This document shows positions 4,314 to 30,884 of a DNA stretch of 64,000 nucleotides, one piece after another (position 1 is the stretch's first letter; each line of letters opens with the position of its first letter). Below the pieces are notes generated by a model. That model did not search any database and was not told where the DNA came from. It saw only the letters and a program-made list of their open reading frames with translations. A program made the position numbers and the translations under genes. This DNA is from an uncultured virus (IMG/VR IMGVR_UViG_3300034092_002263) (Duplodnaviria; Heunggongvirae; Uroviricota; Caudoviricetes). The DNA lies in IMG/VR virus record IMGVR_UViG_3300034092_002263; one strand, 5' to 3'.

Positions 4314-4329
4314 AACTTACTCCTTATTT

Positions 4330-8589: not shown

Positions 8590-8591
8590 AG

Positions 8592-9446
8592 TTATGTCAC
8601 CGTGGGCCAATAAAATGGATTTTCAAAAAAAGAATTAATCCAAGTTCCATCATTAGTAAAATCTACTAGCGTTGCATTGGAATATGGGCTATATGTTGTA
8701 ATACGTGTAGCATCTATATTTCTATTTTTTCTTTGTATAGGACTATCTGGCGTAACTATAAATGGAGTTAAGTTTCCTCTAATTATTGTTGTACCACTAC
8801 GTCTATTTGGCGTAATACTAAAGTTTACTAGATTATAGTGTACATAATTAAAAAATTCCAAGTCATCGTAAGAAAAATATTCTTGTGAAGAAGAGAGTGG
8901 GTTTTTACTGCTGCTACCATAAATAGTATCTGGATTATCGATATTTGTTAATCTAGGATATGTATTAACACCCTGTGTAACATTAAATTGTGGTTTTAAT
9001 ATAGAAACTGGTTGGTTTGATGCTAGTGTTGTTGATATATATCTATTTGTACCAACTATTTGATCTATAGATAATATAGTGCCAAGAAAAGCAACAGAAA
9101 GAAAACCCTTTCTCCATGAGTTACCAGTGGAGGCGTCAAAGAATTGATCATCTAATGACTCAAGAGATTGTGGGTAGTGAGTCCAAGGATCTTGATATTT
9201 AAATCTATCATAAAATTCTGTTTTAACTTCATCTTCGTATTGTTCTTGAAATTTATCAAACTCTTCTCCAAGCGCATTAGATAATGCGGGGGTATATGGT
9301 CTATATTGTCTGTGGGTATTTTCAAATGATAAACTCTTAAAAAGAGCAGAAATTAATCCATCTAGAAAATATTCTTTGGTAGAATTATTTATATCTGAAT
9401 AATCTGGAAATGTATTATGTTGATCTGAGTTTGTTGGATATGGCAT
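8592..9446 (-). CDS. Hypothetical tail-tip region protein (284 aa)
   Basis: ORF tightly packed between tail-tip genes. Confidence 0.6.
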   Translation of the reverse strand: MPYPTNSDQHNTFPDYSDINNSTKEYFLDGLISALFKSLSFENTHRQYRPYTPALSNALGEEFDKFQEQYEDEVKTEFYDRFKYQDPWTHYPQSLESLDDQFFDASTGNSWRKGFLSVAFLGTILSIDQIVGTNRYISTTLASNQPVSILKPQFNVTQGVNTYPRLTNIDNPDTIYGSSSKNPLSSSQEYFSYDDLEFFNYVHYNLVNFSITPNRRSGTTIIRGNLTPFIVTPDSPIQRKNRNIDATRITTYSPYSNATLVDFTNDGTWINSFFENPFYWPTVT

Positions 9447-14100: not shown

Positions 14101-17100
14101 GAATTTTCGTCTAGCCCATCATATAAATATGTGTTTGCGGCAATTGATAATGAAGATGTTAACTGGCCGATGTTATCAGTTCGAATATCAGATCTATCGG
14201 CATATTTATTTTTTCCTTCTAAGAATAGCGGACTCATTGATAGTCCTAATTGTTCGCAAATATACTTTGCCACATTTGCAGATCTAACATTATAAGCAGA
14301 TATTGTAGATGTCATAGAGCTAGAATCTAAATTATATGTATATGTTGTATTATTACTTATTTCATCTCCTAATGATGGCTCTTGACCATAAGTAATTATC
14401 AATGTTTTATTTCCCATATCTAAGAATCGTTTAATATTCTGTATATCTTCACTTGATGGCATATTGTCAGTATTAGCAATCCAAGCTGCTGTATAACCTT
14501 TAGAAATATCATATAGATCTTGTGTTAAAACATTTAAGTCGCCCATATCAATACCAACATTAGTCAATTGTGCCTGTATATCAGATTTATTATATCCATC
14601 AGTATATGAAGTTCTATTTGTAAATCCGCCAACTTGTGCAACTTTTGCATTACCGTCAGCATCAGTTGCTAATAAGTTAAAGTATAGATTAATATTTCTA
14701 TCGCCCGCAGAGGATAATAAAATATTTCTACTTTCATACATAGTAGCAGCAATTAAAACTATTTTTGAAGTTGTACTATATTGTTCTGAAGCAATCATGC
14801 AAACATTGGGTTTGATATTAATCAATTTAGTTGCAGATTGATTAGAGATCGTAGATCTAGCTTGTAGTACAGCATCGTTTCCATTATATTCACTTGGATC
14901 AAAAAACAAACTATTACTTACAGTATTATTAATATTGTAGTTTAATTCTGTATAATTACTGTCATCGTTTGACCAAATAAATGCAACGCCACTATATGCA
15001 GCATTTCCAAACGTTGTTCTTACAGATGTAGAAGAATCATAACCAACTAATTTGGATCTTAATTCTTCAGTAGGTGGAGAGCCGGGAACAATTATTGTTT
15101 TAGGTATTGCTTCATATGCTGACAAGATCGGTACTGGCTCACTCTTTGTGTTGAAATTGGGATTTTTACCTCTTTCTTCTCCTTCGCAGCCCCAATCAAC
15201 AATATTGTGTGTGCCATATTGAAAACCAAAATTTCTTTCATAACTTATCCATGCTGGACCTCTGGGAGTCATTATCTCACATTGATCTATATATTTGGAT
15301 CTTAAATCTCCCTCATGAACAATGGGCATTTCGCACTTATCATGAAGTTCTCTATATGTTCTTTTTCTTTCAAAGTCAAAACTGAATGGATCAGAAGAAC
15401 CACTTGGTGGTTTATCGCATATATATAAATCTGATATGTTTGTATCATATAATCTAATGTCTCCAACACCAGAACCTCTTAATGGAACTGGATAAGCTAT
15501 GGCGGGAGTAGATTTAGCCGGTACAAAAGAGTTTTGAACATTGTAAAATGTATTTGTGTTTTGCATTAATGCTTCATATTGATTTCTAGCAGCATAAATG
15601 CGCATATTGACATCTAGTTCTTCTAATATATAGTTAATAATGTTGTTTGAGTTAAAGTAAGCGCCATTGGCTTCCCACTTGGGATCATTTCCAACCAAGA
15701 CCAAGTGCCTATCGCCTAAAGATAACCAATCTCTAATATTGTCAATTATCTCATCGCTAGCAGCATTAATGGCTGGAGTAATTATAAAGGCGAGTCCAAC
15801 ATCTTCTGGTATTTTTAAACCTTCAGCAAAACTTGTTCTAGAAAATGTATAACCCATACTGTTGTATAGATTATTCATAGTAAAACTAAATAATCCAGAA
15901 TCCTGCGGTGGACTTAATAGTTCGTGTAGATTTCCAAACTTGTAATACTCTACAACCTTTTTATTGTGTGGATAATAATTTCTACTTTCTAACAGCCTTA
16001 TAGCTCCAGCGTTGGTATAATTTTGCCACTGCCAAGGCTCTCCACCAAATGCAGTTTCTTGTCCAGATTTTATGTCATATCTAAACCACGTTTGTGTGTA
16101 GTCTCTTTCGCCCAAACTGTCTGTTGGAGAACCGATAGCAATTAAAGATCCGTCTGAATTTATATCAACACTGTATCCTAATCTTGGTGTTGGTATATAA
16201 TTCGCCCAAAGGTCTGACCAAGCATCAAAACCAATAGGAACGCCCATTTCATAAATTAAGTTGTACCTTTTAATTTGTAGGTTTTCTAAAAACTTGAAGT
16301 AAGCAAAGCGTAAACCTTCTGAAAACTTATTATATGTTTCTAAATTAAGATTTGCTATAGATTCTGTTATTGGTAATTTTTCTAAATATTCACTATATAG
16401 ATCATAACTTTCACCAAATGTAGCATTATTAATTTCTTCATAGTATCTAGGTTGTAAGAAAGATGTGATAAAATATAAGCTGTTTAATAGCTGATTATTG
16501 AAGTTTTCGTTATATTCAAATACCTGCACTGAATGTGGAGAATATGGAGATCCTATAGCAATAACTTTGCCATCATCACTTATTGCAACATCGTGTCCAA
16601 ATCTATCAGAAGTATCATTTGTATAAGAAACTGGGGATTTGATTTCTTGAACAACTTTAAACTGTCCATTATTTTCTCTTTCAAAAATATAAACAGATCC
16701 ACCGCTTGGTGGTGGGTAATTAAATTCACCAGCATTTTCATTGAAGCTACCAAGATTGTTTGCTATTAATTTTTGTACATTGTTTTCTTGTAGTGTTTCA
16801 ATATCAGTTAAATCTAATAAGCAGTTAATAGATTGTGCTATCCAATTTTCATCAACGTCAACCGTTACGTTAACAAATCCTTCGGCTGGATCTCCATCAA
16901 AATCCATTAATCCGTTATTCTTAGAGTAGTCTTTATAGTAATCTATGAATTTATCTAGCGCTCCCTTTCTAAAAGGAATATTGTATCCTAAAGATTTAGA
17001 GCCAAGTGATCTAGAATTATCTATATAGATTCCTAATAGTGGCGGTATGCCGCTATGTATAGCGCCAGATGTTAGCGGAAATACTTCATGAAAAATATCT

Positions 17101-20100
17101 TTTAGTTCTTGAAGTATGACATCTTCTCGCTCTTGATATTCTGGAGTATTTACATTATAACTGAAATGTCTATGAGTAAGATACTTACTTACAAATGGCG
17201 GTTTTGGCTCTAAGAAATCTTTAGAAGTTTCACCAATACCAATATTTGAACCAAGCATTGGTTCGCAAAGTATTACTTTAATATCAAACTTAACTGATGG
17301 GTCACAGAAATATCTATATACTAAATCTCTGTCTGATAGTTGATCTAAAATTTGTCTCCAATTAGCATTATCTGGATCACTAACTAATTCGTTATTAAAT
17401 ACAAATAATCCTATAGTTACTGGAGTAGTTTGTATGGGAGCAAAAGTTCTACTCCACTCAGCGCCGGGTCCACCGGCAATTAAAACATCTGTATTGTTTC
17501 TACGGGCAGAATCTAATGAGTATCCTAATTGCCTTCCTTCTTGACCAACTATCCAATTAGTTCCTATACCTGTGTATGGCAACAAGTTACCATATCTATC
17601 TCTAAAAGAGATATTCCTCTTATAAAAATAATCTCTTCTCCAACCAGTTGGTAAAACAATTTCTTGTTCTAACACAAAGTTAGATTTATCTAATTGATTG
17701 CTCCAATCATAACCACTTGGCTCTGGATTTTTTCTATAGACATAAATTTTTCCTGCATTATTAATTTCGTAATTTGTTTCATCGAAAATATTTTCATATG
17801 GACAACCAATCATAACCCTATCATCAAGAACTGTGACACTTTTACCAAATTTATTTCCAGAAGAGTTCACACTTGGTGTTAATTGTATTCCACTATATGC
17901 AACATCTTCATTTGTTCCATATTCCCATTCTGTCATTTCTCTTGGAACTTGTAGTATTTTATCTGTTCCCGTTTTGCCGGTAATAGTAATTGTGTATGGC
18001 GCTTGTGGTATTAAATTACTGAATTTTCTAATTCCATAAAAATGACCGCTATATGGAATATTAGTACCAAAGGCACCAACATCTGGATTTGTGTAAACAG
18101 TTATTGGTCTAATGACTCCACCGTTAACACATTCTGGATCATACCACAGTGTGTCATGTGTTATAAGTTGATCTTCTTGACACTTAATAGTGCTGATTGT
18201 ATCACAATTACCATAGCATATGGTTTGTACTCCTCTAATTTCATCAATCGCAGGAACTGACGCAAATTGATTATCTAATAATGAAATTTCTTTACCAAAA
18301 TTTGTGCCATCCCACTTAAATGATTCTAGTTCATTATCTCTTTTGGAAATTGGTTTTACGTGATATAGATAGAGAGGAAATTGAGAATTAATATTTTCTT
18401 CTTTTGGTCTACTGTTGATATATAAAGCAATATTTGCACTTGTTGGTTCCCAAGTTCTGTTTGGACCAAGTACATATAAACCAATAGATTCTTCTGTTGA
18501 AATATCAAAAGCAGAAAGCGGAAAACCAGCTAACAACATAAAATTAAGTTGATCAACCGCTGGCTGATTTACATCATCATATGAAAAGAGATTTAATGAG
18601 TTGCTTATAGTATTTTCTACTAAGCCGTTAACATAACAAATAATAGAATCTTCTTCATTGTCATATCCACCTTCTACAAAAAGGCTCATGCCTAGTGGAT
18701 TATTATTTCCAAATAAACTTCCAAAATTTGAATTCGATGTTGATGCATTGCCAACTTGAATGGTATATAACGGCATTGATACATTACTGTTAAATACTCC
18801 AGAACTAATTAATGACATTATACCAGATTGTTCAATATATGTTACGCCGCTGGTGTAGATATTAATTTGGTTATTGAAAGCGCTAACATATCCCACTTCA
18901 TATAATGGTAATGGAGCTTCTTGATAAGCTTTACCAGATTCATAAATTGGTAAATTGTTATTTATTTCATCAGATTGGTTAATTCCATTTAGTTCTATAT
19001 CTACTGAGTGTAATTTAATTTGTGATTTGTTATATGTGCCAGATGGATAGATAACATCGTATTGCACAAACATTTGATTTATGTCTTTAACAAAATAATT
19101 TTCTTCAAATTCTTTGTATGTAATAGTTTTATCGAAAAATGCCCAAGGTTCAGATTCATTATCCTTTAAATCTCCCAATTTAAACTTACTTTCTATCTTA
19201 TTCCAGCAATCTTTTGGATTGAGATAATGAGTAGATCTGCTAATCAAACCAAAGTTTTTGGTTGGAAATAATACACTTTCTTTAGATGGAGTATATAAAC
19301 TAACTATAAGTTTAGCACCAGTTTTGCCATTGGGCCAATTAATAGTAGAATCACATTCATGTTGTACAACGCTGTTAACAATTAAAGAATCTTCAGCAAC
19401 TATATAACTTCTTGGTAAGTTTTTAACCAATCTTGGAGGTAAAGAATAAAGCCTGTCTTCATTACCAGAAAGACTAAATCTTAACATATCATTTTCTACT
19501 TGAGAATGATATGAAATACCAGATAAATGTATTGAGTTTGGTAATGTTAGATTGGTTCTGTCTTGATAAGTCTTTCCATCATTATAAAAATTATGATATA
19601 GATAGTCTTTTCCATTTCTAAATTTCATAATGTCATACGCAACACCAAAACTACAATATTTAAAAGCTCCTAATTTCCAATCTTCTGTTTTTTCATCAAT
19701 AAATTGCCATAGTTTATTTCTATCATTTACGTGTGAGTCATTTACATTGCAAAAATGTGCTAAGTGGGTGTCGAAAAATAATTCAATATTGTCTTGCTGT
19801 TTAGAAGAATCTGGATTTGCATTATAGACTAGATTACCACCACCAGTATCATTATGAGTTGATATACCAATTTCAGAAATAAAAGCATTGATGCCTATTC
19901 CAGATCCAGAAGAATATCCAAATAACAAATCACTATTACCACTACTTAATACAAACTCATTTGATTCATCACGTAGTATGTTTGTGCCACTGGCAATTGC
20001 GGCAATTTCACTATTAGTAAATAGTCTTAATTTACGAGATTGATTATCATTATAAGTTAACGCAATAGAAAGTGGATATTGATAATTTTCATATGATATA

Positions 20101-23100
20101 GAATCTTGAAGTTCAATCAAGTTACCATTAGAATCTTTGGCATATGCTGAAAGATATCCATCTTTATATCCTAAAGCATATTCTAGTTCTTCTGCTTCGT
20201 CCCATTTAGAAAACAATACTCCAGAATTCCACAAGTTATAATCTACACCGCTCATGTTATAATCTGGAGAAAATCTTAAAAATACAGCAAAACCACTAGA
20301 TGTTGGAACATTACCAAAATTCAAATAACCATTAACACCAGAAATGCGAACAGCGGAGTCAAACGAATCAAGTATTTTTCCATATAATTCGTGACTATTA
20401 TCGGCCCAATCTAAACTGGTATAATCTCTTATAGCGATGGGAAATAATGATTCATTATTAAATCTTAAACCAAGATTTCTAACTAAACTAGAAGATAGAT
20501 TTGCAGTAAACAAACCGCTTACAGTACTGGGAGCATCTTCCAAACTAGATAAAACATAATTATTGTGCGTATTGTTGAAATCATAATACCCAATAGTAAA
20601 TGGTTGATCAAGTTGTGGATTACTAAAAGCAAAATCAAATGGAACAGGATCAAATGGGCCACCAAAAACATTACCGCTGCAACCGCGCCATCTTCTAGCA
20701 TAATTTGTTTTTAGCGTCGTTTCAGAAGTTGAATATGCGTGTGGAATATTTTCTATTAGAGATAGCGGTGAATTTAAAATGTTGTATGGTGTGTCCACAG
20801 ATTTTCTGGCTGATGGATAAAGTCTATTTTGTCTTCTGGCTATTTCCCTACTAAGAAAACCGGCGGTTGATAGTGGAAGAGCGCCACCGGGTTTATACTT
20901 GACAATGAGATTTGCGCTAGCAATCGAAGCGCCACTAGGAATTGGATATATATCTAGATATAAAGATTCAAAATAACTACTCATAGAGTAGTCTTTAGAC
21001 ATGCCCAATTCTACTTTGTCTTTGTATATCTTTAGTGGTACAGTGTACTTAGTAAATGAAGTGCTATTGACTAGTGGAGATTGAGTAATTAAATAGTGAT
21101 CTCCAGAATCGTTGGGAACAATATTTTTTGAGAAATATGATCGTTTATCAGATAGAGATTCTGAAGAAATTCCAAGATCATAAACGGGACCAAAACCAGA
21201 TGTAGTTGGAATAGTTCCGCTACCAGTAATTGAATTTTGTAGAAATCCACCAACATCAGAAGTAATGAATAAAACTTTATCATCACTATAACCAACAACG
21301 TCTATTGGAAAGTCATTTGTTCCGATAGCTTTTTTAGCAACAATTTCTAAGCTAATATCTTCAATAATAAAGAAAGAATCATCTCCATAAACCAATTCTA
21401 TATCAGCTTTTTTAAATGGATTTGTATATGTGTTACCAAACGAAAAGTCACCACCCCTTGGAAGTTTTACAGAAAACGGTCTTTGATGCTCATATAATAA
21501 CTGAAGTTTGCCAGATGGTGCCGTGTGAGAAACTATATTTCCATCAGTATATAGATTAGTAAGTCTATCTATAAGTTCTAATTGATGTTTATCATCATTA
21601 ATAGTATTATTGTATGTAAGATTGTCAAGATCTGGAGAGGTTTCCCAAACATTATTTAGTCCCGTTGGATAAATATTATTATCGAATGTGTTTAGTAAAA
21701 CCTTGGTTGGATATATAACTCTTTCTATCCAAGTTCCAGTGCTTTGAACACCTAAGAAGAATGGAAGTTCAGAATCTCTCAATATACCTTCCGCTCTACC
21801 TAGATTAGCAATTTCTATTGCTGAAATTCTAATAGCGTTAGTAGGTCTAATATGATAATCTTGAGATTGTGCAGATAATGGAGCGCCATCCACAGCAAGA
21901 TAATCGTTTTCAGAAGTATTAACAAATTGATCATTCAAATTGGCTTCAAAGGCAAAACCCTTGGCAAATTCTTCTGTAAACGGTTTGTAAAAACAGTCTC
22001 CAGTAATGTCGAAACTTAACGTATACCCACTTGGTTCTCCAAGAATAGGATATTTTAATTTCCAAGTATTTAATGTTGCATAATTTATCTCTGGCTCGCT
22101 AACATATGTAATATAATTAAATTGGTCTTTGTCTTCAAAGTTTGCCTCGCCACGAACTTGAAAATCTTTGTATTTAACAATCAAATTGCCAGAAGGATCT
22201 TCAAACTTAATATTTGTTATGTCGTATAATGTTGGCTGATCTGTTTCATAATTAAATGTTGGCGCGGCGGCGCGGAAAAAAAAGAAACTTTCTAATGGAG
22301 TAATTTCTGGAGTATTAACAAAACACTTATACTTGAATGTGCCTTTAGTGTAAATAGATGATGGAGTAATATATGTTGAGTCATCGTCTGAAATAATATT
22401 TCCTATACGAGAATTTTTAGTAATATTACCTACACACACACCCTCATTAATACTTTCAAATAGATTAACCGGCTTAATTTTCTCATTAACAAGAAAAATA
22501 TTATTATGTTCGACTGTAATATCTTGAATAGGAAATAATTTTTGTGTTGGAGTGAAATTATCAAATTGGTTTATTTTGTTAAAATGCCCATGTAATTTTT
22601 CGAAATATTTACTTTTAACAATACCAGAACCAGATATTCTAGTCCTAAAATTATTAATAGGGCGATTAAGACTAGCTTTTAATTCAAATCTTGTAGATAG
22701 TCTAGATAGTTTAAGATTCCAAATACACTGTGGTCCTCTAGAGATAACTAATACAGAATTATTAGAGTCTGGTGGATCATAAACACTACTTGGAATAGCA
22801 TCCCATCCACCACTAATAATGGCTGGACTATTTATGTTGATTAATTGAGTTGGTAGATTTGTGGGAGATCTACGTATTAATAGTTCGGATGATAATACTT
22901 TGATATTTCCAGAAACTTTAATAATTTTTGGAGCAAAGCTTGGAAAATTAGATACAGTATTAGCAAATAGAGAACCAAATGTAGGTGTTGAATTAGTTCC
23001 AGACCCTCTTTTAAATCCAGAATATATTACACTTACATTAAGTTTACTTAGATTGCCAGCACCTCTTGATCTAACAAAAGGTTGTACTGTTTTTTTCAAA

Positions 23101-23168
23101 AACGCTTTGACTTTAGCGTCTGGCGCTATTTTTATTTTTAGTCTCGACGATCCATCACAAAGAAACAT
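11178..23168 (-). CDS. Giant virion adhesin-like protein (3996 aa) with LamG-like domain, seven dispersed FG-GAP repeats and GATase1/DUF4350-like domains
   Basis: FG-GAP-type motifs FGKSV, LGYSL, FGHDV, LGYSV, FGYSV, FGYDI, FGNAI. LamG-like GVLFSKWD...LSIALTYND. AAGGA SD; directly follows the TMP. Confidence 0.7.
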   Translation of the reverse strand: MFLCDGSSRLKIKIAPDAKVKAFLKKTVQPFVRSRGAGNLSKLNVSVIYSGFKRGSGTNSTPTFGSLFANTVSNFPSFAPKIIKVSGNIKVLSSELLIRRSPTNLPTQLININSPAIISGGWDAIPSSVYDPPDSNNSVLVISRGPQCIWNLKLSRLSTRFELKASLNRPINNFRTRISGSGIVKSKYFEKLHGHFNKINQFDNFTPTQKLFPIQDITVEHNNIFLVNEKIKPVNLFESINEGVCVGNITKNSRIGNIISDDDSTYITPSSIYTKGTFKYKCFVNTPEITPLESFFFFRAAAPTFNYETDQPTLYDITNIKFEDPSGNLIVKYKDFQVRGEANFEDKDQFNYITYVSEPEINYATLNTWKLKYPILGEPSGYTLSFDITGDCFYKPFTEEFAKGFAFEANLNDQFVNTSENDYLAVDGAPLSAQSQDYHIRPTNAIRISAIEIANLGRAEGILRDSELPFFLGVQSTGTWIERVIYPTKVLLNTFDNNIYPTGLNNVWETSPDLDNLTYNNTINDDKHQLELIDRLTNLYTDGNIVSHTAPSGKLQLLYEHQRPFSVKLPRGGDFSFGNTYTNPFKKADIELVYGDDSFFIIEDISLEIVAKKAIGTNDFPIDVVGYSDDKVLFITSDVGGFLQNSITGSGTIPTTSGFGPVYDLGISSESLSDKRSYFSKNIVPNDSGDHYLITQSPLVNSTSFTKYTVPLKIYKDKVELGMSKDYSMSSYFESLYLDIYPIPSGASIASANLIVKYKPGGALPLSTAGFLSREIARRQNRLYPSARKSVDTPYNILNSPLSLIENIPHAYSTSETTLKTNYARRWRGCSGNVFGGPFDPVPFDFAFSNPQLDQPFTIGYYDFNNTHNNYVLSSLEDAPSTVSGLFTANLSSSLVRNLGLRFNNESLFPIAIRDYTSLDWADNSHELYGKILDSFDSAVRISGVNGYLNFGNVPTSSGFAVFLRFSPDYNMSGVDYNLWNSGVLFSKWDEAEELEYALGYKDGYLSAYAKDSNGNLIELQDSISYENYQYPLSIALTYNDNQSRKLRLFTNSEIAAIASGTNILRDESNEFVLSSGNSDLLFGYSSGSGIGINAFISEIGISTHNDTGGGNLVYNANPDSSKQQDNIELFFDTHLAHFCNVNDSHVNDRNKLWQFIDEKTEDWKLGAFKYCSFGVAYDIMKFRNGKDYLYHNFYNDGKTYQDRTNLTLPNSIHLSGISYHSQVENDMLRFSLSGNEDRLYSLPPRLVKNLPRSYIVAEDSLIVNSVVQHECDSTINWPNGKTGAKLIVSLYTPSKESVLFPTKNFGLISRSTHYLNPKDCWNKIESKFKLGDLKDNESEPWAFFDKTITYKEFEENYFVKDINQMFVQYDVIYPSGTYNKSQIKLHSVDIELNGINQSDEINNNLPIYESGKAYQEAPLPLYEVGYVSAFNNQINIYTSGVTYIEQSGIMSLISSGVFNSNVSMPLYTIQVGNASTSNSNFGSLFGNNNPLGMSLFVEGGYDNEEDSIICYVNGLVENTISNSLNLFSYDDVNQPAVDQLNFMLLAGFPLSAFDISTEESIGLYVLGPNRTWEPTSANIALYINSRPKEENINSQFPLYLYHVKPISKRDNELESFKWDGTNFGKEISLLDNQFASVPAIDEIRGVQTICYGNCDTISTIKCQEDQLITHDTLWYDPECVNGGVIRPITVYTNPDVGAFGTNIPYSGHFYGIRKFSNLIPQAPYTITITGKTGTDKILQVPREMTEWEYGTNEDVAYSGIQLTPSVNSSGNKFGKSVTVLDDRVMIGCPYENIFDETNYEINNAGKIYVYRKNPEPSGYDWSNQLDKSNFVLEQEIVLPTGWRRDYFYKRNISFRDRYGNLLPYTGIGTNWIVGQEGRQLGYSLDSARRNNTDVLIAGGPGAEWSRTFAPIQTTPVTIGLFVFNNELVSDPDNANWRQILDQLSDRDLVYRYFCDPSVKFDIKVILCEPMLGSNIGIGETSKDFLEPKPPFVSKYLTHRHFSYNVNTPEYQEREDVILQELKDIFHEVFPLTSGAIHSGIPPLLGIYIDNSRSLGSKSLGYNIPFRKGALDKFIDYYKDYSKNNGLMDFDGDPAEGFVNVTVDVDENWIAQSINCLLDLTDIETLQENNVQKLIANNLGSFNENAGEFNYPPPSGGSVYIFERENNGQFKVVQEIKSPVSYTNDTSDRFGHDVAISDDGKVIAIGSPYSPHSVQVFEYNENFNNQLLNSLYFITSFLQPRYYEEINNATFGESYDLYSEYLEKLPITESIANLNLETYNKFSEGLRFAYFKFLENLQIKRYNLIYEMGVPIGFDAWSDLWANYIPTPRLGYSVDINSDGSLIAIGSPTDSLGERDYTQTWFRYDIKSGQETAFGGEPWQWQNYTNAGAIRLLESRNYYPHNKKVVEYYKFGNLHELLSPPQDSGLFSFTMNNLYNSMGYTFSRTSFAEGLKIPEDVGLAFIITPAINAASDEIIDNIRDWLSLGDRHLVLVGNDPKWEANGAYFNSNNIINYILEELDVNMRIYAARNQYEALMQNTNTFYNVQNSFVPAKSTPAIAYPVPLRGSGVGDIRLYDTNISDLYICDKPPSGSSDPFSFDFERKRTYRELHDKCEMPIVHEGDLRSKYIDQCEIMTPRGPAWISYERNFGFQYGTHNIVDWGCEGEERGKNPNFNTKSEPVPILSAYEAIPKTIIVPGSPPTEELRSKLVGYDSSTSVRTTFGNAAYSGVAFIWSNDDSNYTELNYNINNTVSNSLFFDPSEYNGNDAVLQARSTISNQSATKLINIKPNVCMIASEQYSTTSKIVLIAATMYESRNILLSSAGDRNINLYFNLLATDADGNAKVAQVGGFTNRTSYTDGYNKSDIQAQLTNVGIDMGDLNVLTQDLYDISKGYTAAWIANTDNMPSSEDIQNIKRFLDMGNKTLIITYGQEPSLGDEISNNTTYTYNLDSSSMTSTISAYNVRSANVAKYICEQLGLSMSPLFLEGKNKYADRSDIRTDNIGQLTSSLSIAANTYLYDGLDENSSFASSNSYVGYGDGAVTVPYSDRPPYPVPNGFTHEFVPINNNNAINLAFFDAPVTDTEQFSIGVPKFNTGITKVSFTVPEKLEEHDDYNLFKLRFNILKESSLEISPINLVVGNCLASEFVNTSVLNQPIGPVGRNILLVDTDENNNVKQTYVSAGYTKELYDSLDLYVQIPSGQETLDMYFTHSASYPLQQNPKQLRTVRLLSVSGVRIPSNTIISTARWPIYETEVVTIPGTPDTSYTQLFNREISTDSSKYCISNNRICSNDPPEGYGTPGVDIADGPVVMAQTVYHQGGYFNGYNKSRITVISDPSLIQGRTILSEGGNTINPNLAWFLASLYPNTNFNTTRSGRQYETAFKIISPERSSPSRLVNAYPENSGLNYRFGQFTSNSLPATKYSDLEGKIEIAGKKPPQPTDPMLSLFNSDIGHFRIEIIPPPAYSEEYKAALRQAWYIDNFNAVEQHYGSTSKIQDTYNGTLYRDAGIYSRIPPILRAIGKDHLDLDVFYSGYPGDLFGYSVKIHKDKVYVGAPFSPYNTEEITPWSTIIASGMQYGKEVGFNGGAGAVYLIEKVGNVGSGLGSVNLSKQKTTGIPWTVTRKFRPEEISVGFSGLTTSNSSTVIGNNNYSNDELKNLAFVSDMFGYDIALNGDILAISAPCHRFENYSEDTLAPFIRKEFNEQFDIQQRIIHDLAIPSEREQYGASGTVVFNHGAVFTYENKINNWGSKTQEWTPIHKLVAQGPYARIQNSGENTFFGNAIAIDRARRVDGDYILAVGAMNHPFSTSGNVFDNIGSTYAFDGMLRSLRPAFSHPDTFIAGRVYGEYQKPSDYTTFTFKNDNNFDQKVLFNGIVLSNINGEIFIEASGQDKVPRGYVVHRPYIEHIRGSFLHGTPVYEDINLFVDGAPPFVSGSLSLVNYGPESNNVYNMMDLYTFNLLQSSGNMPLIASGLASPSGVMELYSSGIAKTDTILQLRTRGSL
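11338..11345 (-). promoter_or_regulatory. Possible internal late promoter GTGTATAA about 160 nt upstream of the 575-aa gene
   Basis: Exact motif match inside the 3' end of the giant gene; could be chance. Confidence 0.3.
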
Positions 23169-23177
23169 ATTTATTCC

Positions 23178-26100
23178 TTATCGACCAACTGTTGATGAAG
23201 ACTTGCTTAAAGTACCACCTTGTCCAACTTTATATTTACTGATTTCTTTAGTTACAGCCTCAATGATTTGATTATTAGCATAATCTTTGATTGCCTTAAA
23301 TATTCCACCGTCCATTAGGTTGACAGTAACAGTAACCGGCGCTAATGTGATATTTAAACCTAATGAACTTAATCTATCTATATTAGCTTGAAATGCACCC
23401 AAAAACGTTGTCAAAGATTGAGAAAAATTGCTTAATGCGGCTAAATCTATTGGTGGTTGTGCATTACCATTTGCAGGCGTAGTATTAGTCGCTATAGTAG
23501 ATAATACACTTTGTAGACCACCAATAGCACTAATAATACCATCTGAATTAAATGTTGGCATCATTTGTTGTGGACTAGCTCCAGAACTACTAGTATTTTG
23601 TGGTACTTGTGGGACATTGGCTACTGGTGGCGCAGGGGTTGTAGCGACGTTTGCTGGTGGAGTAGTACCAGTTTGAGATGGTGGAGTATAATTAGTATTT
23701 GCGGCTAATCTTGCTTGGAGCGCTGGGTTTCCAGAAAAATTTGCAACCGTCGCAGAAAGTGGAGAACTTGGTGGAGGTTTAGAAGCTTGTGCTTCTGGTT
23801 GAGCTTGAGCTTTTGGTTCTGGTGGCGGCGCGGCAGACTGATCGGCTTTTGGCGCTTCAGCACCTTCTGCGGCTTTACCAGCCTCGCCAGTTCTTTCTTT
23901 AACGTTTTGTACGGCTGCTTCCATTTGTTTCTTTGCTGCTTCTTCCAAAGCCCTAGCAGCATCTAGTTGCAGCTTTGCTGCTAATTCTTGATTTTGTGCC
24001 GCTGGAACTAATTGTGCTGCTAAACCTCTAGCCTCTTCTTGAATTGCTTTTTCTTCAGCGGTTGTGCCTGCGGCAACTTCTGCCATACCCTTGAGATCAC
24101 CAGACATTCCAGTATTAGCCAAACCTGCTGCATAAGCGTTTTCTGTAACTTGATCTATATTTTGACCAAACACTTCTCTTACGCCAGCTTCTTTTTGTGC
24201 TTGTAATTGTTTTGTAGCCTCTCCAAAAGCTGTAAAACCAAATTGACTAGTTAATCTTGGGTCACCAACCGCTGCTGCTGCGGCTGCTCCAGCGCCAGCT
24301 TGTTTGTTTAAAAACTCTTCTATATTTCCACTAAGTAAAGAATCAATAGCGTCTTTTTCAGCTTTGTTTTTAGCCTTCACAAGTTTTAGTTCTTGACGTT
24401 TAACATCAATTAATGCTCTAATGGTTTCTTGTTCTTTAGCTGCGAGGTCTGCTAGTCTTTGTTCTTGAGCTTCAAATTCTGGATTAATTTGTTGTTGAGC
24501 GCCCCTGTCGCCACTTGCTGCCGACTTTCTAACAGCACCAAGTTCTTCCATTTTTGCTCTAGTTTCTGCACTTCTTTGAGCAAATTCAGCAGCACTGCCT
24601 GTCTGTAGACCACTAACACCGACTTGTGCTGAATCAAGATTTGCTTTATCCAATATTGCTTGTTTTTGCATTTCTGGAGTGACTGCCGCCCCTCCAAATT
24701 CTTCCATAATTTTAGCAGCTTCCATCTGAACATCAATAGTTTTCTTTTGAGCTTCAATGTATTTATTTTCAAGATCTATTCTTTGTTTTTGTATTTTGAA
24801 TAATTGTTCTTCAGATTCTTTAACCTTTTGTAAGGCTGGAAGAACTTGAGATAATGTCTGTTCTCCAAGTTCTCCAAGAGCGTTCTGTAGTGGAGCAAAG
24901 TTACCATCAACAATTTTTTGCATATCATCTGGACTAAGGTTTCCACCTTCTATTGCTTTTTTAATTCTCTCTTTAACTTCTGGCGCAAAATCTTTTAGTT
25001 GATTAACAACTGCCTCTCCTAAAGCTTCACGTTTTTCATCTGCCGTGCCAGTACCACGGGCAACACCTCTCTCAAAATCTGCTTTTAATTTTGCTTTTGC
25101 TTCTTCACTCGCTTGAGCGAAGAATTTTTGAGCTTGATTAACTGCGCCTAGATTTTCTTCAAATTTCTTTATTTGTGCTGGATCGCCACCAAGTTTACTT
25201 AGTTGTCCAGAAGCTTCTTGAACAGCGCTGTTCCAATCAGTATCAGAAATACCTTGGGCAGCATTTGTAATACCAGCTTCTAGTGTAGATATTGTTTGTC
25301 CAAGTCTTGATGTACTACCATCTTGTGCTTCAATAAGATTATTAATTCCAACAGAGGCGGCGGAAGCTGCGGCATTTACATTATTAAATCCTAAGTTCAT
25401 AGCATTAAAAGCTTCTCTTGTTCTTTGAGCTTCTTTAGCTAAATTATTAAATTCCTTCTCCATTCTTTGTAATTCGCTGTCTCTACCTTTCGCCTTGGCT
25501 TCTTCTTGTTCTCTTTCTAATGTTGCAACGACATTAGTTCCTTGTTCTGCATCTCTTTGCTTTAAGAGATTAAGGACATCTTGAAAAGATCCGCCGGAAT
25601 TAGCTGTTTGTCTTTGGACTAAACCTATTCCGGGTTTTGCGCTAGCAAGAACAGTTTTATCTAATTCTTTATTTGCTTTTTGTAATTCTTCTTGTTTTTC
25701 TACTCTTTGTTTTTTGACATCTGCATTAGAATCGACAAATCCAAAACTTAGCCAAGCTAATGCTTCCCTCATATAACTAAATGTATCTTCTGCTAATTCT
25801 TTTTGTAAAGCGCTTAAAGCTTCTTCGTTTGCCATTCTTGCTTCAACAGCCGCTAATTGTGCAGAAGAAGCAGCATTCAAAACATCAATAGCAGAAGCGG
25901 TGCCATTTCTAAATTCTTCCATTTTTTGTGAAGTAGCATCCTGTGCATCTTGGAATTTTTCAGTTGCTTTATTTGTTAAAGACATAGCCTTGGCGTGTTT
26001 AATTATTATGTCGCCATCTACTTCTAAGCTAGCCGTCATTGCGCCAACACCAGCACCAATGATTGCCCCCGCCGCAGCGCCAATAGTAGTTCCAATGACA

Positions 26101-29100
26101 GGAACAATAGACCCAACAGCAAGACCAATAGCAGCACCAGAAGCAGCACCAAGACCAACATTACCTAGTTCATCTCCAGTTGGTCTAATCATTCTTTCTC
26201 TAGCACCAACCTCTTCTTCGGCTTTTAACACAGCCGTATTAACATCTCCCTCTTTTATAGCTTTTTCTTTTTGCGCTTTAGCAGCTTCAGCAATAGAAGA
26301 TTGCCATAATGCAAATGCTCCTATAGCGCCAAGAACTGCGGCAGCTAATAATACAAAAGGATTAGCTAGTACTGCTGCTAAATTAGCAGATGTTTCGGCA
26401 ACTTCTGAAGCAGTATTTGCTGTATTAGCTCCAGTTTCTGCGCCCTCTGTTATAGTATTTGCGGTATTGGCTGCTGCATTAACTTTAGCAGCAGAACTCA
26501 TTAATCCTACATTAACTAGCAATCCTTTAAAACCATCAGCAATACTTCCAAATGGTATTTGACTTAGAAAATAACCTACGGTAGAAACCTGTAATCCTAA
26601 TTCTGAAAAATTTTTCTTTAAATAATCCATTGATGTAGAATTTTCATCAATTGTTGGAGCAAGCATTGCTAATGCAGAAGTGACTGCACCAAATGCGGCA
26701 AAAGCGGCCATACCATCTCCACCGCCTCTTCTTGGAGTTCCACCACCACCGCCAGCATCAGATGCTCTATTAGATGGAAGTGGAGAACTTGCCCCCGCCT
26801 GAACAGTATTGCGTAAATCTGATCTGGCAGAACTTTCTCTCCTATTAGTTTGAATTTGACGCTCCATTCTGTAGCGACGAGCTTCTACTGGATCAGTAGC
26901 CGCCATTCTACTAGCAGTGTATTCTAGATTTTCATTTGTTCGTCTTTTATATCCAGCAGATAGAACATTTGCTTTGTCACTACCTTTATAAAATCCAGCT
27001 TCTTGTAAAGCAGCTTTTTTGGCTTTAGCGGCAGCGGTTTTATTACTAACAACACCACCTGTTCGTACATCAATTTGAGAAGCGGTTTTACCGCTCATAA
27101 TATTTTGCGTGGCTGATTTTTTAGCGGCATTATATTGTTCTGTAATAGCTTGTTTTAATTTTTTACGTTCTGCATCTATTTGTGAAACAGATGTAATACC
27201 TCTTTGAGCTAATCTAGCAGAAGAAGATTCATATTGATATTGTTTAACATATAGGTCTTTTATATTTTGTTTGGCGTTATAAATTTCTTGATCTATATTT
27301 CTATCAACTTCACCGCCGGATGAAGCTGGAGATTTTTTAACATCTTTACTAGCTTTTGCTGATTCTTGTTTTACTTTAGTATCTTCTAACAAAGCTCTTC
27401 CATAAGCTTCTAATCTTTCTTCAACAATTAGGTGTTGTGCAGTATTCCCATCTAAAGACGAAATATATTGACTAATTTCATCAATAATACCAAATTGAGT
27501 TAATGATCCAAGTTTATTAGCAGCGGCGTTGTCTTTAAGAGCCGTAATAAGTGGACCTCCACTAAAACCTATAACACCTTTAATTTGTTGACTTAAAGAA
27601 GCGTAGCCAGAACTTAATTCTTGATTAAATCCAGCAAAATTAGCTATACGTGAAGATAAATTTTTGGTAACTTTATCAAGAACTTTGAAAGTTGTGGATA
27701 CACCAGTGAATATACTGGGATCAAAATCCACAAACCCCTCACTACCAGATCCTAAAAATTGTGGCGGTTTACTTTTACCACCCTTGGCAAATCTTTGAAT
27801 ACCAACTATGCCACCCTTTGCATATTTACCAACTTTATTCATACGGTTAAGAGAACCGTAACCAATATTTTGAGCAGATTTTTTGTTAATTACGAACTCA
27901 CCGGGAGTCAACAATGCCGGAACAGTATCTGTGCCGACACTTCCACCAGTAGCAAATCGTTTTACTGCTCTATCAGCCCTTGGACCCTTTGATCTCATTG
28001 AATCAAGTGCTGGTTGTTTGCTTGCGCCCTGAGTAAATATCATGTTTGCGGTTGGTATACCAAACAATCCACCAAGGTATTCAGCAGCGCCCTTAACTCT
28101 TTTAGATTTGCTGATAATGCTAATTTTGCGAGGATCTATTTGACCCGACTTAATTATAGCTTGTAGTTCTTTACCAAATTGAGTTAATGGAGAAGATTTC
28201 AAATCTTGTAATCTTTTTGCTTCATCTCTAAAATATGTTTGTAGAACAGATTGTTTTGCTTCTGGAGTTTTTGCTTTGGCATATGCTAAATCACCAACTG
28301 TTCGTTTTAGAGTACGATCAATATCTACAGCGCCGCCGCCAGACTTTATTAACGCTTGAATAGCAGAACTTGGGTTTGGCAATATAGAACCAGATGCTTG
28401 TAATATATCATCAACCATTGGGGCTGTTGCCAAACCACCGGCAGCAAATTTTTGTAATGTAACACCTTCTAATTTTCCTTTATTAATATCGTTTACAATT
28501 TTGTTTTTGATAGAATCAATTGCATCTTTAGTATTAGTTCTTTTTGCGTCTGCTTTTACTAAGTTATTAATTCCCTCACCGCTAGAATTAGCAAACATTG
28601 CTGCTAGTGAAGTTTTTGAAGAAGCAATAGACGATGAAGGAAAATCAAAATTAGATTGACCTCCAGATAAAGCTGCTCCAGTTATAGCTTGTATTAAGCC
28701 TTCAAAAATAAATCCTTCTGTTGTTTTTTTTGCGTTTGGGTCATTGGATATTTTAGACGCGCCAGACTTGGCTCTAGCGTTATCAATATTAATTATTGGA
28801 TTATTTAATCGTTCTATTGCAGGTTGAGTAGATTTTAATACAGCGTCATATAATGCTGATTTTGTATTAGAAGATACTATTTGAGATATAGAAGATGTTT
28901 CAAGATCGTCTCTACCGGGAAAATAACTAGAAATTGAACCAGAAATGTTTACTGGTTGTTTATCTACTTGAACTGCTCCACGCTTTACGGCATTAGATAT
29001 TCTTTTCTCAGTATTTGGGTCTGACAATGCTTCTGATACATCTGTTCCTAGTCCTAATTTTTTTCTTTTATTAATTGTACCATTTTTATTAAAGATATTT

Positions 29101-30884
29101 TCTGTGATTTTTGATGGTAATTTTTTCCCACCCCTAAATCCAGAGGAACCAAATATAATTTTGGATTGTTGATCTTTAGATAAATTAACAAATGCTTGTG
29201 AGTTAAAAGATTCTTTATTAAATCCAAGTTGATCTAAAATTTTTGGATTATTAATATTTCCAGGAAAATTTAGGTTTAATTGTCTATCGCTACCTTTCTC
29301 TGGTTGTAAGAAAAAACCACCTATTGCACCGGGATTAATAAGAATTTTACCACCTTTGGCATATCTATTCTCATTCATAGCAGCAAGATTACTAGCACCT
29401 AATCTATTGACGCTACTCTTTCTAATAACAAATTCGCCGGGTTGTAACATTGCTGGAACAGTATCTCTATTGCCACTGCCGGGAACCATACCACCCCTAG
29501 CAAAATAATGAACTTGACCTCCGCGAGACATTCTTCTACCACCACCACCGCCACCTAATCCGGCTGAAATACCACCTAAAAATCCACCAATACCCTGTGC
29601 CGCTTTAATGCTAGCAAATGTTAATAATAATGGTATAACGGGTTTTAACGAATCTGCAAGTTTAATTAGTGCGCTCGCTAATTTCAAAGTAGTATCAGCA
29701 AGAACTTGGAAAGTGCCAGTTTGTGTAACACTTCTAATTAGTGCTAGAAATTCTTCTTTAACTTTGATAATTCTTATAGCAAGAGATTGTTGTGCAGTAG
29801 CAACGTCATTAGCCAAAGAACCCGCGCCCTCTTGTGCGACATTTAAAGCTTCTTGAGCAACAGCAAACTGTTGTAAGAGTGGAATAACTTTACCAATCTG
29901 TCTAAAGCCACCAAGCTCTTCTGCAACGCGAATAAATGTAATATCGCCCTGTTCTAATCCACCAAGGGCTTCGCTCAATCTTTTAATGGCTTCAAACGGT
30001 CCAACGAATTTACCCTGTAAATCTACAAGCTCTACACCAAACTGTTTTAAGAATTCAATTGTTTTGGGGCGTTGGATACGTGTAAAAATTGTACGTAAAC
30101 CAGTACCAATACTTTCTGCACTTTCTCGCGTAGTCGCTCTTACGCTGGTGAACAATGCCAAGAGTTCATTAAGACTACCGCCAGAAGATTTAAACACACC
30201 GCCCGTTCTACGAACAACGTCGATCAAGTCAGATGATTCAACAGCAAACGCCGCTGAAACAGCGTTAACTGAACCAAGTTGTTGTTCTAAGGCAGCGGCA
30301 CCAGCTCTAAACTGATTAAAAATAGCCACAGCGCCTTCTGTGGTTTCTGTAATATCATCGAACGTTGGCGACAATTGAGTTTGTGCTAAAGTTCTAAGTG
30401 CTATTTCTGTATCTTTGGCAGTTAAACCAGCTTGTGCTAAAATCGTTGAAACATTTATCAAACTAGAAGAACTAACACCTAAATTAGTAGCTAAAGATGT
30501 AATTGTCTCACTAAGAGAAGAAAGTTGTGTGATAGTCTTGCCAGTGACCTGACTTATACGAACTAACTCTCTTTCAAATTTTATAGCTTCATCTACGGCG
30601 CTGGAAATTGTATTAGTAAAAAGACTAACAGCCCTAGTTGCTACGGCTAGGGCTGAAAATCTTCTTACTGATGTTACGAATGTTCTGCCTAGTCTTTCTG
30701 ACGCTACAGTAGCTCTATCAGTAGACTGAGTTAATTGATCTATTTCAGATCTAGCTCTTGCAGCATTATTTACCTGTATATTAACTCTAACATTATCAAG
30801 TTGACTTTGGATTTGTCTAACAACTTGATTAACATTTGAGGGCGCTTGTATATTTAACTGTGCTGTGAGTACAAATCTTGACAT
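23178..30884 (-). CDS. Tail tape measure protein (2568 aa) with internal enzyme-like cassette
   Basis: N-terminal TP901-family-like core (FERELVRISQVTG, LAQAGL, ESIGTGLRTIFTRI). Ala/Gln-rich helical body with hydrophobic glycine-zipper segments. DTVPAMLxPGEFV motifs; position after tail tube and chaperones. Confidence 0.93.
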   Translation of the reverse strand: MSRFVLTAQLNIQAPSNVNQVVRQIQSQLDNVRVNIQVNNAARARSEIDQLTQSTDRATVASERLGRTFVTSVRRFSALAVATRAVSLFTNTISSAVDEAIKFERELVRISQVTGKTITQLSSLSETITSLATNLGVSSSSLINVSTILAQAGLTAKDTEIALRTLAQTQLSPTFDDITETTEGAVAIFNQFRAGAAALEQQLGSVNAVSAAFAVESSDLIDVVRRTGGVFKSSGGSLNELLALFTSVRATTRESAESIGTGLRTIFTRIQRPKTIEFLKQFGVELVDLQGKFVGPFEAIKRLSEALGGLEQGDITFIRVAEELGGFRQIGKVIPLLQQFAVAQEALNVAQEGAGSLANDVATAQQSLAIRIIKVKEEFLALIRSVTQTGTFQVLADTTLKLASALIKLADSLKPVIPLLLTFASIKAAQGIGGFLGGISAGLGGGGGGRRMSRGGQVHYFARGGMVPGSGNRDTVPAMLQPGEFVIRKSSVNRLGASNLAAMNENRYAKGGKILINPGAIGGFFLQPEKGSDRQLNLNFPGNINNPKILDQLGFNKESFNSQAFVNLSKDQQSKIIFGSSGFRGGKKLPSKITENIFNKNGTINKRKKLGLGTDVSEALSDPNTEKRISNAVKRGAVQVDKQPVNISGSISSYFPGRDDLETSSISQIVSSNTKSALYDAVLKSTQPAIERLNNPIINIDNARAKSGASKISNDPNAKKTTEGFIFEGLIQAITGAALSGGQSNFDFPSSSIASSKTSLAAMFANSSGEGINNLVKADAKRTNTKDAIDSIKNKIVNDINKGKLEGVTLQKFAAGGLATAPMVDDILQASGSILPNPSSAIQALIKSGGGAVDIDRTLKRTVGDLAYAKAKTPEAKQSVLQTYFRDEAKRLQDLKSSPLTQFGKELQAIIKSGQIDPRKISIISKSKRVKGAAEYLGGLFGIPTANMIFTQGASKQPALDSMRSKGPRADRAVKRFATGGSVGTDTVPALLTPGEFVINKKSAQNIGYGSLNRMNKVGKYAKGGIVGIQRFAKGGKSKPPQFLGSGSEGFVDFDPSIFTGVSTTFKVLDKVTKNLSSRIANFAGFNQELSSGYASLSQQIKGVIGFSGGPLITALKDNAAANKLGSLTQFGIIDEISQYISSLDGNTAQHLIVEERLEAYGRALLEDTKVKQESAKASKDVKKSPASSGGEVDRNIDQEIYNAKQNIKDLYVKQYQYESSSARLAQRGITSVSQIDAERKKLKQAITEQYNAAKKSATQNIMSGKTASQIDVRTGGVVSNKTAAAKAKKAALQEAGFYKGSDKANVLSAGYKRRTNENLEYTASRMAATDPVEARRYRMERQIQTNRRESSARSDLRNTVQAGASSPLPSNRASDAGGGGGTPRRGGGDGMAAFAAFGAVTSALAMLAPTIDENSTSMDYLKKNFSELGLQVSTVGYFLSQIPFGSIADGFKGLLVNVGLMSSAAKVNAAANTANTITEGAETGANTANTASEVAETSANLAAVLANPFVLLAAAVLGAIGAFALWQSSIAEAAKAQKEKAIKEGDVNTAVLKAEEEVGARERMIRPTGDELGNVGLGAASGAAIGLAVGSIVPVIGTTIGAAAGAIIGAGVGAMTASLEVDGDIIIKHAKAMSLTNKATEKFQDAQDATSQKMEEFRNGTASAIDVLNAASSAQLAAVEARMANEEALSALQKELAEDTFSYMREALAWLSFGFVDSNADVKKQRVEKQEELQKANKELDKTVLASAKPGIGLVQRQTANSGGSFQDVLNLLKQRDAEQGTNVVATLEREQEEAKAKGRDSELQRMEKEFNNLAKEAQRTREAFNAMNLGFNNVNAAASAASVGINNLIEAQDGSTSRLGQTISTLEAGITNAAQGISDTDWNSAVQEASGQLSKLGGDPAQIKKFEENLGAVNQAQKFFAQASEEAKAKLKADFERGVARGTGTADEKREALGEAVVNQLKDFAPEVKERIKKAIEGGNLSPDDMQKIVDGNFAPLQNALGELGEQTLSQVLPALQKVKESEEQLFKIQKQRIDLENKYIEAQKKTIDVQMEAAKIMEEFGGAAVTPEMQKQAILDKANLDSAQVGVSGLQTGSAAEFAQRSAETRAKMEELGAVRKSAASGDRGAQQQINPEFEAQEQRLADLAAKEQETIRALIDVKRQELKLVKAKNKAEKDAIDSLLSGNIEEFLNKQAGAGAAAAAAVGDPRLTSQFGFTAFGEATKQLQAQKEAGVREVFGQNIDQVTENAYAAGLANTGMSGDLKGMAEVAAGTTAEEKAIQEEARGLAAQLVPAAQNQELAAKLQLDAARALEEAAKKQMEAAVQNVKERTGEAGKAAEGAEAPKADQSAAPPPEPKAQAQPEAQASKPPPSSPLSATVANFSGNPALQARLAANTNYTPPSQTGTTPPANVATTPAPPVANVPQVPQNTSSSGASPQQMMPTFNSDGIISAIGGLQSVLSTIATNTTPANGNAQPPIDLAALSNFSQSLTTFLGAFQANIDRLSSLGLNITLAPVTVTVNLMDGGIFKAIKDYANNQIIEAVTKEISKYKVGQGGTLSKSSSTVGR
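27777..29531 (-). repeat. Seven (F/Y/M)xxGG motifs and a duplicated FAxGG-DTVPAxLxPGEFVI-MN-YAKGG module inside the TMP
   Basis: MSRGG aa452, FARGG 461, YAKGG 508, FAAGG 813, FATGG 977, YAKGG 1021, FAKGG 1032. Confidence 0.85.

Follow-up and report, generated by a model that had tools for sequence, protein, structure and literature searches.

Phage tail tape measure proteins are known to carry enzymatic motifs, such as the peptidoglycan hydrolase motifs of mycobacteriophage TM4 and others, and the muralytic C-terminus of T5 pb2. The present work deals with a domain, hereafter module A, embedded in the tape measure protein encoded by a 64,000-nucleotide stretch of DNA from an uncultured member of the Caudoviricetes (IMG/VR record IMGVR_UViG_3300034092_002263; the whole stretch is referred to as the window). 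As in the tape measure proteins of the TM4/T5 pb2 type, an enzyme-like domain lies inside the tail ruler and would be ejected along with it. The TM4/T5 pb2 enzymes, however, are cell-wall hydrolases of known families, whereas module A matches none of these; moreover, module A directly follows the conserved N-terminal part of its carrier and lies between repeated junction motifs.

The nearest known concept is the polyvalent protein. According to Iyer et al. (2017, PMC5512222), polyvalent proteins unite, in a single polypeptide carried by the virion, several enzyme domains of the effector type and are thought to enter the cell with the DNA; the same paper describes them as head- or portal-associated, with processing metallopeptidases and with ParB-like DNases as the DNase. 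ADP-ribosyltransferase (ART) domains, which that paper reports as common in polyvalent proteins, also occur in relatives of the tape measure protein studied here, and enzyme-like cassettes are likewise found several to a protein. Our case differs from what is described there in that the carrier is a tape measure protein, a Pfam scan found no peptidase domain in it, and the ParB-like rows obtained in fold searches are insignificant. Polymorphic toxin systems (Zhang et al. 2012, PMC3482391) resemble this locus in having a conserved delivery part and toxin or enzyme cassettes diversified by recombination at conserved junctions. In those systems, the variable cassette lies at the C-terminus and is accompanied by immunity genes; here the cassettes are situated within a structural phage protein, and an immunity gene is not evident. 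In the literature covered, outside of which lay the subscription journals, no paper was found that describes tape measure proteins with nuclease-like or ART cassettes.

The data reported below indicate that module A is a real and conserved domain, found only in tape measure proteins, swappable between phages, bearing what looks like an active site, and of unproven fold class.

Module A and its invariant residues

The carrier gene is a single open reading frame (ORF) of 7.7 kb in the ORF listing of the window, and codes for 2568 amino acids (aa). A Pfam search placed family PF10145 at aa 126-312 (86.5 bits, the cut-off being 33.2; E 3e-24), and PHROG adds matches of four tape measure families (phrog_28, 4211, 1533, and 167) to the same protein, which, judging from these sequence matches, is a tape measure protein of the TP901 family; SPbeta YomI shares just 25% identity with its N-terminal part. 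The gene and the parts of module A are the following:

23178..30884, minus strand: tape measure protein gene (single ORF; PF10145; four PHROG families)
28434..29363, minus strand: module A, aa 508-817, 310 residues, between two junction motifs (AlphaFold2 domain; limits the same as those of the stretch replaced in close relatives)
29253..29351, minus strand: N-terminal three-strand meander, aa 512-544, with the conserved I-G-G-F-F-L-x-P (DSSP strands at model positions 7-11, 16-22, and 30-39)
28980..29246, minus strand: variable helical insert, aa 547-635 (model helices 42-130)
28449..28739, minus strand: catalytic-looking core, aa 716-812 (DSSP of two models; invariant columns)
28701..28703, minus strand: E728 codon (conserved in alignments)
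28644..28646, minus strand: D747 codon (conserved in alignments)
28542..28550, minus strand: D779-A-K781 codons, with D779 at 28548-28550 and K781 at 28542-28544 (conserved in alignments)
28500..28502, minus strand: K795 codon, a fifth near-invariant residue which a preliminary description of the window did not mention (alignments)

That preliminary description had placed a nuclease candidate at 28449-29348, which corresponds to aa 513-812. The AlphaFold2 model of aa 506-830, built from a 42-row alignment, folds as one domain, with a mean predicted local distance difference test value (pLDDT) of 92.2 and a predicted template modelling score (pTM) of 0.87. The three short strands of its meander (aa 512-544) look antiparallel. 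The helical insert that follows is absent or unalignable in relatives P0023 and P0025-P0029; in a BLAST comparison with the first 29 relatives, aa 513-567 and 647-817 were conserved, with a variable part between them that is missing in some, and the meander is kept even where the middle part is lacking. After the insert, AlphaFold2 and DSSP give a long strand (643-654) and three helices (663-693, 702-713, and 716-735), the last of which contains E728; then come a bridge at F748 beside D747, two short helices, and a strand (777-783) with D779 and K781, and the domain ends with a helix (786-801) carrying K795 and a strand (808-812). Module A is basic, with an isoelectric point of 9.8 here and a median of 9.35 over 204 cores.

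The motifs GFIFE, NFDFP, and KADAKR, on which the nuclease proposal was founded, are correctly placed, since the translation has them from aa 724, 745, and 777, respectively. The secondary structure guessed along with them was reproduced by AlphaFold2, with E728 in helix 716-735 and helix 786-801 after strand 777-783. The conservation of E728, D747, D779, and K781 among homologues, named at that stage as a check, is borne out strongly in three sets of sequences. In a 67-row alignment, E728 occurs in 67/67 rows, D747 in 66/67, and K781 in 66/67, while position 779 has D in 60 rows and E in 6; the lone deviant row (P0030) is visibly misaligned. In the 42-row alignment, G724, E728, D747, K781, and K795 are all invariant. 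Finally, ten rounds of profile search over 207 related proteins retrieved 206 copies of the module from 201 of them (42 clusters at 45% identity), with E and D at the first two positions in all 206, D in 172 and E in 34 at the third, K in 203 and R in 3 at the fourth, and K795 in 201. Rounds past the tenth drifted, from 206 to 693 domains, and were discarded.

Relatives missed by the first profile keep the signature on a very different sequence, e.g., ..IFEG..FDFP..VDAKK.. or ..FFEG..FDFT..NEFK... Since profiles can impose their own motif, a loose regular expression for the ordered motifs was added; it matches 186 of 187 long relatives, the mean for per-sequence shuffles being 8.8 of 187. The ordered motifs thus exceed chance. 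Their order and spacing in this protein are E..(19)..D..(32)..DxK, and the interchange of D and E at position 779 is what a metal ligand would be expected to tolerate. We also observed two copies of the module in P0054 (aa 208-327 and 563-681) and in P0103 (aa 977-1094 and 1277-1389), one of the copies being very divergent (IFEEY..NFDIL..GEIK).

Distribution and exchange of module A

A HMMER search with aa 513-830 against 1.84 billion representatives retrieved 78 proteins, 59 of them of at least 1400 aa; 15 of the 19 shorter ones bear a junction motif or a tape measure N-terminus, and these are therefore fragments. A search with a 19-row core alignment, limited by its word index, examined 1438 candidates of 61-224 aa and turned up no stand-alone homologue. 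Database searches found module A at one locus of a metagenome-assembled genome among bacterial genomes, at 11 loci in viral contigs, and in no GenBank phage. In these searches, module A was confined to tape measure proteins.

More than 2477 proteins are related to the N-terminal 512 aa of the tape measure protein at E ≤ 1e-20. Among the best 120 of them, which were picked by their N-terminus regardless of whether the module was present, it was recognized in 55 by the first-pass profile, in 114 by that of the tenth round, and in all 120 by the pattern. The term "cargo", which had been applied to the segment, is thus inadequate in so far as it means something optional, since a module present in 114-120 of the 120 closest relatives is a fixed part of the family; it is apt in so far as its sequence is swapped between near-identical phages.

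Such constancy (114/120 by hidden Markov model, 120/120 by pattern), together with the restriction to tape measure proteins and the lack of a stand-alone protein of 61-224 aa in our search, would also suit a non-catalytic structural or assembly element, e.g., a plug, a knot that binds a metal or a ligand, or a site at which partners of the tail chaperone, tube, or membrane kind dock; in that case, the invariant charged residues would make up a salt bridge or an ion site, buried in the domain and needed for refolding after ejection. A partner-binding element, however, should co-vary with its conserved partners, yet module A diverges more than the N-terminal part of the same proteins (25-65% identity versus 40-72%).

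The comparison with close relatives also bears on this point. The segment concerned is:

28453..29345, minus strand: swapped segment, without DNA similarity to the nearest viral record, L008 (blastn; GC content)

In a blastn comparison of the gene with L008, nucleotides 17-1539 are 99.5% identical and nucleotides 2433-4448 are 86.4% identical; nothing aligns between nucleotides 1539 and 2433, that is, over the segment above, which nearly coincides with the interval singled out in the preliminary description. Its GC content (0.31) is lower than that of the flanks (0.40 and 0.36). In a similar way, relative P0101 does not differ from this protein over aa 1-507 (100% identity), and the two are about 86-100% identical over aa 803-1202 and from aa 1386 onwards; over aa 501-803 the identity is only 6-28%, yet IFEA..FDFP..SDAKR is retained. 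Such wholesale replacement between phages with 99-100% identical flanks speaks against a non-catalytic element, as does the fact that only G, E, D, D/E-x-K, and K stay fixed, which is the pattern of an active site. P0101 falls to 26-70% identity also at aa 1203-1385 (window 26730-27278, minus strand), which may be another exchangeable segment.

One CCWGG site in this segment had been taken as consistent with a recent acquisition. The count underlying that remark is right, as only three sites exist in the window (10338, 29260, and 40886), against 50.4 ± 6.7 expected from 100 shuffles; the CCAGG site at 29260 falls in the N-terminal meander of module A. Since at least 20 six-base palindromes (e.g., GGATCC, CTGCAG, CAGCTG, and GAGCTC) are also wholly absent from the window, the depletion reflects a general avoidance of restriction sites, so that one remaining site in the segment says little; one of three sites falling within 900 of 64,000 bases is a post-hoc 4% event, and we rejected it as evidence of acquisition. 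The swap of sequence between near-identical phages, by contrast, supports a recent exchange far better.

Junction motifs, further cassettes, and neighbouring genes

The cassettes of this protein are bracketed by a junction motif with the consensus ..GG..(N)DTVPAxLxPGEFV..N. The motifs and the module that follows module A are located as follows:

29370..29501, minus strand: junction motif 1, aa 462-505, ..GGMVPGSGNRDTVPAMLQPGEFVI.. (repeated motif)
27834..27953, minus strand: junction motif 2, aa 978-1017 (repeated motif)
27954..28433, minus strand: module B, aa 818-977, directly after module A (alignment of 44 distinct copies)

By pattern, the junction motif occurs twice in this protein and three times in 131 of 187 long relatives. 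The family phrog_35029 matches two stretches, and a PDB profile search also matched the motif to the tape measure chain of mycobacteriophage Douge (8zdo_S, aa 963-1027, E 1.9e-4); according to the Douge structure paper, the tape measure is modelled for its last 42 residues only, and aa 963-1027 lie outside the modelled part.

Module B was found in only some relatives. Its 44 distinct copies share an invariant D-x-D-(R)-(T), an S-K-S, and a later K; an hhalign comparison with HAD_2 gave a P value of 0.034, which is not significant. The order of the modules varies, with A before B here and B before A in P0008. Downstream of module A, three relatives carry an ART domain of family PF03496 (26.7-29.8 bits, cut-off 23.4), at these positions:

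P0157, aa 966-1177: PF03496 cassette (Pfam)
P0160, aa 1067-1276: PF03496 cassette (Pfam)
P0146, aa 943-1101: PF03496 cassette (Pfam)

Pfam lists the same family for relatives P0166 and P0175. As an ADP-ribosyltransferase needs NAD, the region of the protein that holds the cassettes is likely to reach the cytoplasm. The occurrence of recognizable enzymes in neighbouring slots is a further point against a non-catalytic role of module A.

Four relatives have an additional compact cassette before module A (P0118 and P0131, aa 509-700; P0183, aa 509-695; P0098, aa 516-718). It reads FE .. P-V-D-F .. 10 residues .. E-A-K (E-V-R in P0183) and thus has the classical tight PD-ExK spacing. It gave no Pfam match and no significant profile link to Mrr_cat, and kinship with module A was not demonstrable (hhalign P 0.18-0.22).

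Further along the tape measure protein, Gly/Ala-rich hydrophobic stretches at aa ~1400-1560 (window ~26200-26700, minus strand) have the look of membrane or glycine-zipper segments, and Gly-zipper families of Pfam match the equivalent region in relatives P0147 and P0111. All large ORFs of the window have the same orientation, and the few with matches to phage families code for tail or head proteins. Directly downstream of the tape measure gene are ORFs of 3996, 575, 284, 1426, and 1210 aa, none of which has a PHROG match at E ≤ 1e-5; the size of the first is unusual for a tail-tip protein. The window ORF list includes:

11178-23168, minus strand: downstream ORF
4330-8610, minus strand: downstream ORF
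681-4313, minus strand: downstream ORF

Fold class, function, and meaning of module A

An invariant chemistry on a hypervariable scaffold, together with the exchange of cassettes at junctions, is the pattern of an arms-race effector, and for this reason we favour an injected enzyme. The reading we prefer is that module A is an injected, metal-dependent phosphodiesterase or nuclease-like effector, to which we assign a probability of roughly 0.4. According to this reading, the enzyme domain is built into the tape measure and would leave the virion with the tape measure protein when the tail fires. Its active site would have the layout of the PD-(D/E)xK nucleases, with E728 (in a helix), D747 (in a short strand), and D/E779 holding a divalent metal, while K781 (on the same strand as 779, two residues on) and K795 (in the next helix) would act on the phosphate and on the attacking water, by positioning or activating them. 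The chemistry would be fixed, whereas the remainder of the domain would diversify and be exchanged by recombination in the flanking junction motifs. An effector that meets a different target or recogniser in different hosts would be expected to show just such fixed residues on an exchanged scaffold; candidate substrates would be the DNA or RNA of the host, nucleotides used in defence, or a phosphodiester of the envelope. The gene, the confidence of the predicted fold, the invariant residues with their secondary-structure setting, the confinement to tape measure proteins, and the swap are established by the data; catalysis, metal dependence, the substrate, the place of action, and kinship with the PD-(D/E)xK enzymes are inferred.

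In the PD-(D/E)xK superfamily, the active-site residues are borne by elements in the order alpha..beta-beta-alpha-beta, within a core alpha-beta-beta-beta-alpha-beta in which helix 1 bears E, strand 2 has D at its start, and strand 3 holds (D/E)xK, strands 2 and 3 forming an antiparallel hairpin. Module A has the residues E...D...(D/E)xK in this order, conserved among homologues, and in the model E728 lies in a helix and D779/K781 in a strand followed by a helix and then by a strand, as the superfamily would lead one to expect. The core modelled alone (aa 698-818) gives an indirect indication that these residues come together: its only strands are F746-D747-F748 and A778-D779-A780, with pLDDT 62-74 there, and since there are only these two, the D747 and D779 strands must pair. 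The best local pieces of the hhalign alignments with Mrr_cat also place the FE helix onto the FE helix, and DAKR plus helix onto QcKR plus helix.

Several observations weigh against membership. No strand is predicted between helix 1 and D747, and between the D strand and the DxK strand there is, in place of the tight hairpin, a linker of about 28 residues that contains two helices (no variant has fewer than 20 residues here), so that, if the model is right, the link may be a parallel beta-alpha-beta crossover, not the antiparallel hairpin of the superfamily. The core-only model reached a middling pLDDT of 74.9. The structure prediction that had been suggested for this region did give a confident domain, but Foldseek searches with the models returned no row at E ≤ 0.001 from either the PDB or BFVD, and VIA gave only helical-hairpin matches for the whole domain. 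Recurrent ParB-like Foldseek rows were dismissed, their template modelling score being about 0.09.

Sequence libraries point the same way. Pfam, NCBIfam, and PADLOC gave nothing meaningful for module A, three of its viral relatives, or module B (for module A, Pfam had no match at E ≤ 10); neither a sequence search of the PDB nor searches with two profiles produced a match within module A, and searches of the ESM Atlas with the module gave no usable lead. The profile comparison with the superfamily covered two member families, Mrr_cat and UPF0102, with alignments built from genome loci (Mrr_cat 21, UPF0102 24, PIN 20, and HAD_2 20 sequences); for VRR_NUC, the 61 genomes gave one weak locus. Module A versus Mrr_cat gave P values of 0.083-0.094, no better than those of the HAD control (0.096-0.16), and versus UPF0102 a P value of 0.56, while the positive control, Mrr versus UPF0102, gave 2.9e-5.

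The PD-(D/E)xK assignment of the preliminary description is partly supported. Similarity of fold or profile to superfamily members such as Mrr_cat (PF04471), VRR_NUC (4qbn), and NucS (2vld) is not significant. Module A further departs from these nucleases in having an extra lysine, K795, and in adding the large N-terminal meander and the helical insert; in addition, a free-standing form was not found. Membership in the superfamily is thus unproven, and the resemblance consists of the signature and of a predicted local topology.

A second explanation, which we regard as possible although doubtful, is an enzyme of another fold, either a Rossmann-like phosphoesterase (PIN/HARP-like or HAD/receiver-like), with the acidic residues and the lysine around a metal or a phospho-aspartate, or a cell-envelope hydrolase acting during penetration, as other enzymatic parts of tape measures do. 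PIN-like and HARP metallonucleases have an all-parallel Rossmann-like sheet with four conserved acidic residues. In the fold-match list of the core, which tells against the PD-(D/E)xK layout, PGRP proteins come first and four HAD phosphatases are also included. The comparison of module A with PIN gave hhalign P values of 0.82-0.91. As for a HAD phosphatase, motif I of that family is DxDx(T/V) at the end of strand 1, and module A has D779-A-K781-R-T, its +2 residue being lysine in 203 of the 206 copies and arginine in 3, so that this motif is not present.

A non-catalytic element, the third explanation, is in keeping with the lack of a match to any enzyme family, and we consider it unlikely in view of the divergence, the replacement, the fixed residues, and the neighbouring enzymes discussed above.

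Returning to the injected enzyme that we prefer, one may go a step further. On a tentative and rather bold view, which we judge improbable on balance, module A represents an enzyme family that has not been described so far and has its own fold, every phage of the lineage injects it, and the tape measure protein is a modular effector vehicle. In such a vehicle, slot 1 would hold the phosphodiesterase and slot 2 a HAD-like, ADP-ribosyltransferase, or other cassette, in a lineage of more than 2,400 protein clusters; the arrangement would be analogous to that of polymorphic toxins, but built into a structural protein of the tail.

Tape measure proteins are usually seen as rulers and DNA conduits, with a cell-wall hydrolase now and then. 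The uncultured aquatic phage lineage considered here carries enzyme-like cassettes behind the conserved N-terminal part of such a protein, and the first of them, module A, is universal, active-site-like, and swapped between phages. Module A would add to the known domains a family absent from all the libraries, whose structure is predicted with confidence and has no counterpart among solved ones. If it is indeed a nuclease or other phosphodiesterase and enters together with the DNA, it would serve as a weapon of the first minute of infection or as a counter-defence, and its hypervariability would mark an arms race open to direct test.

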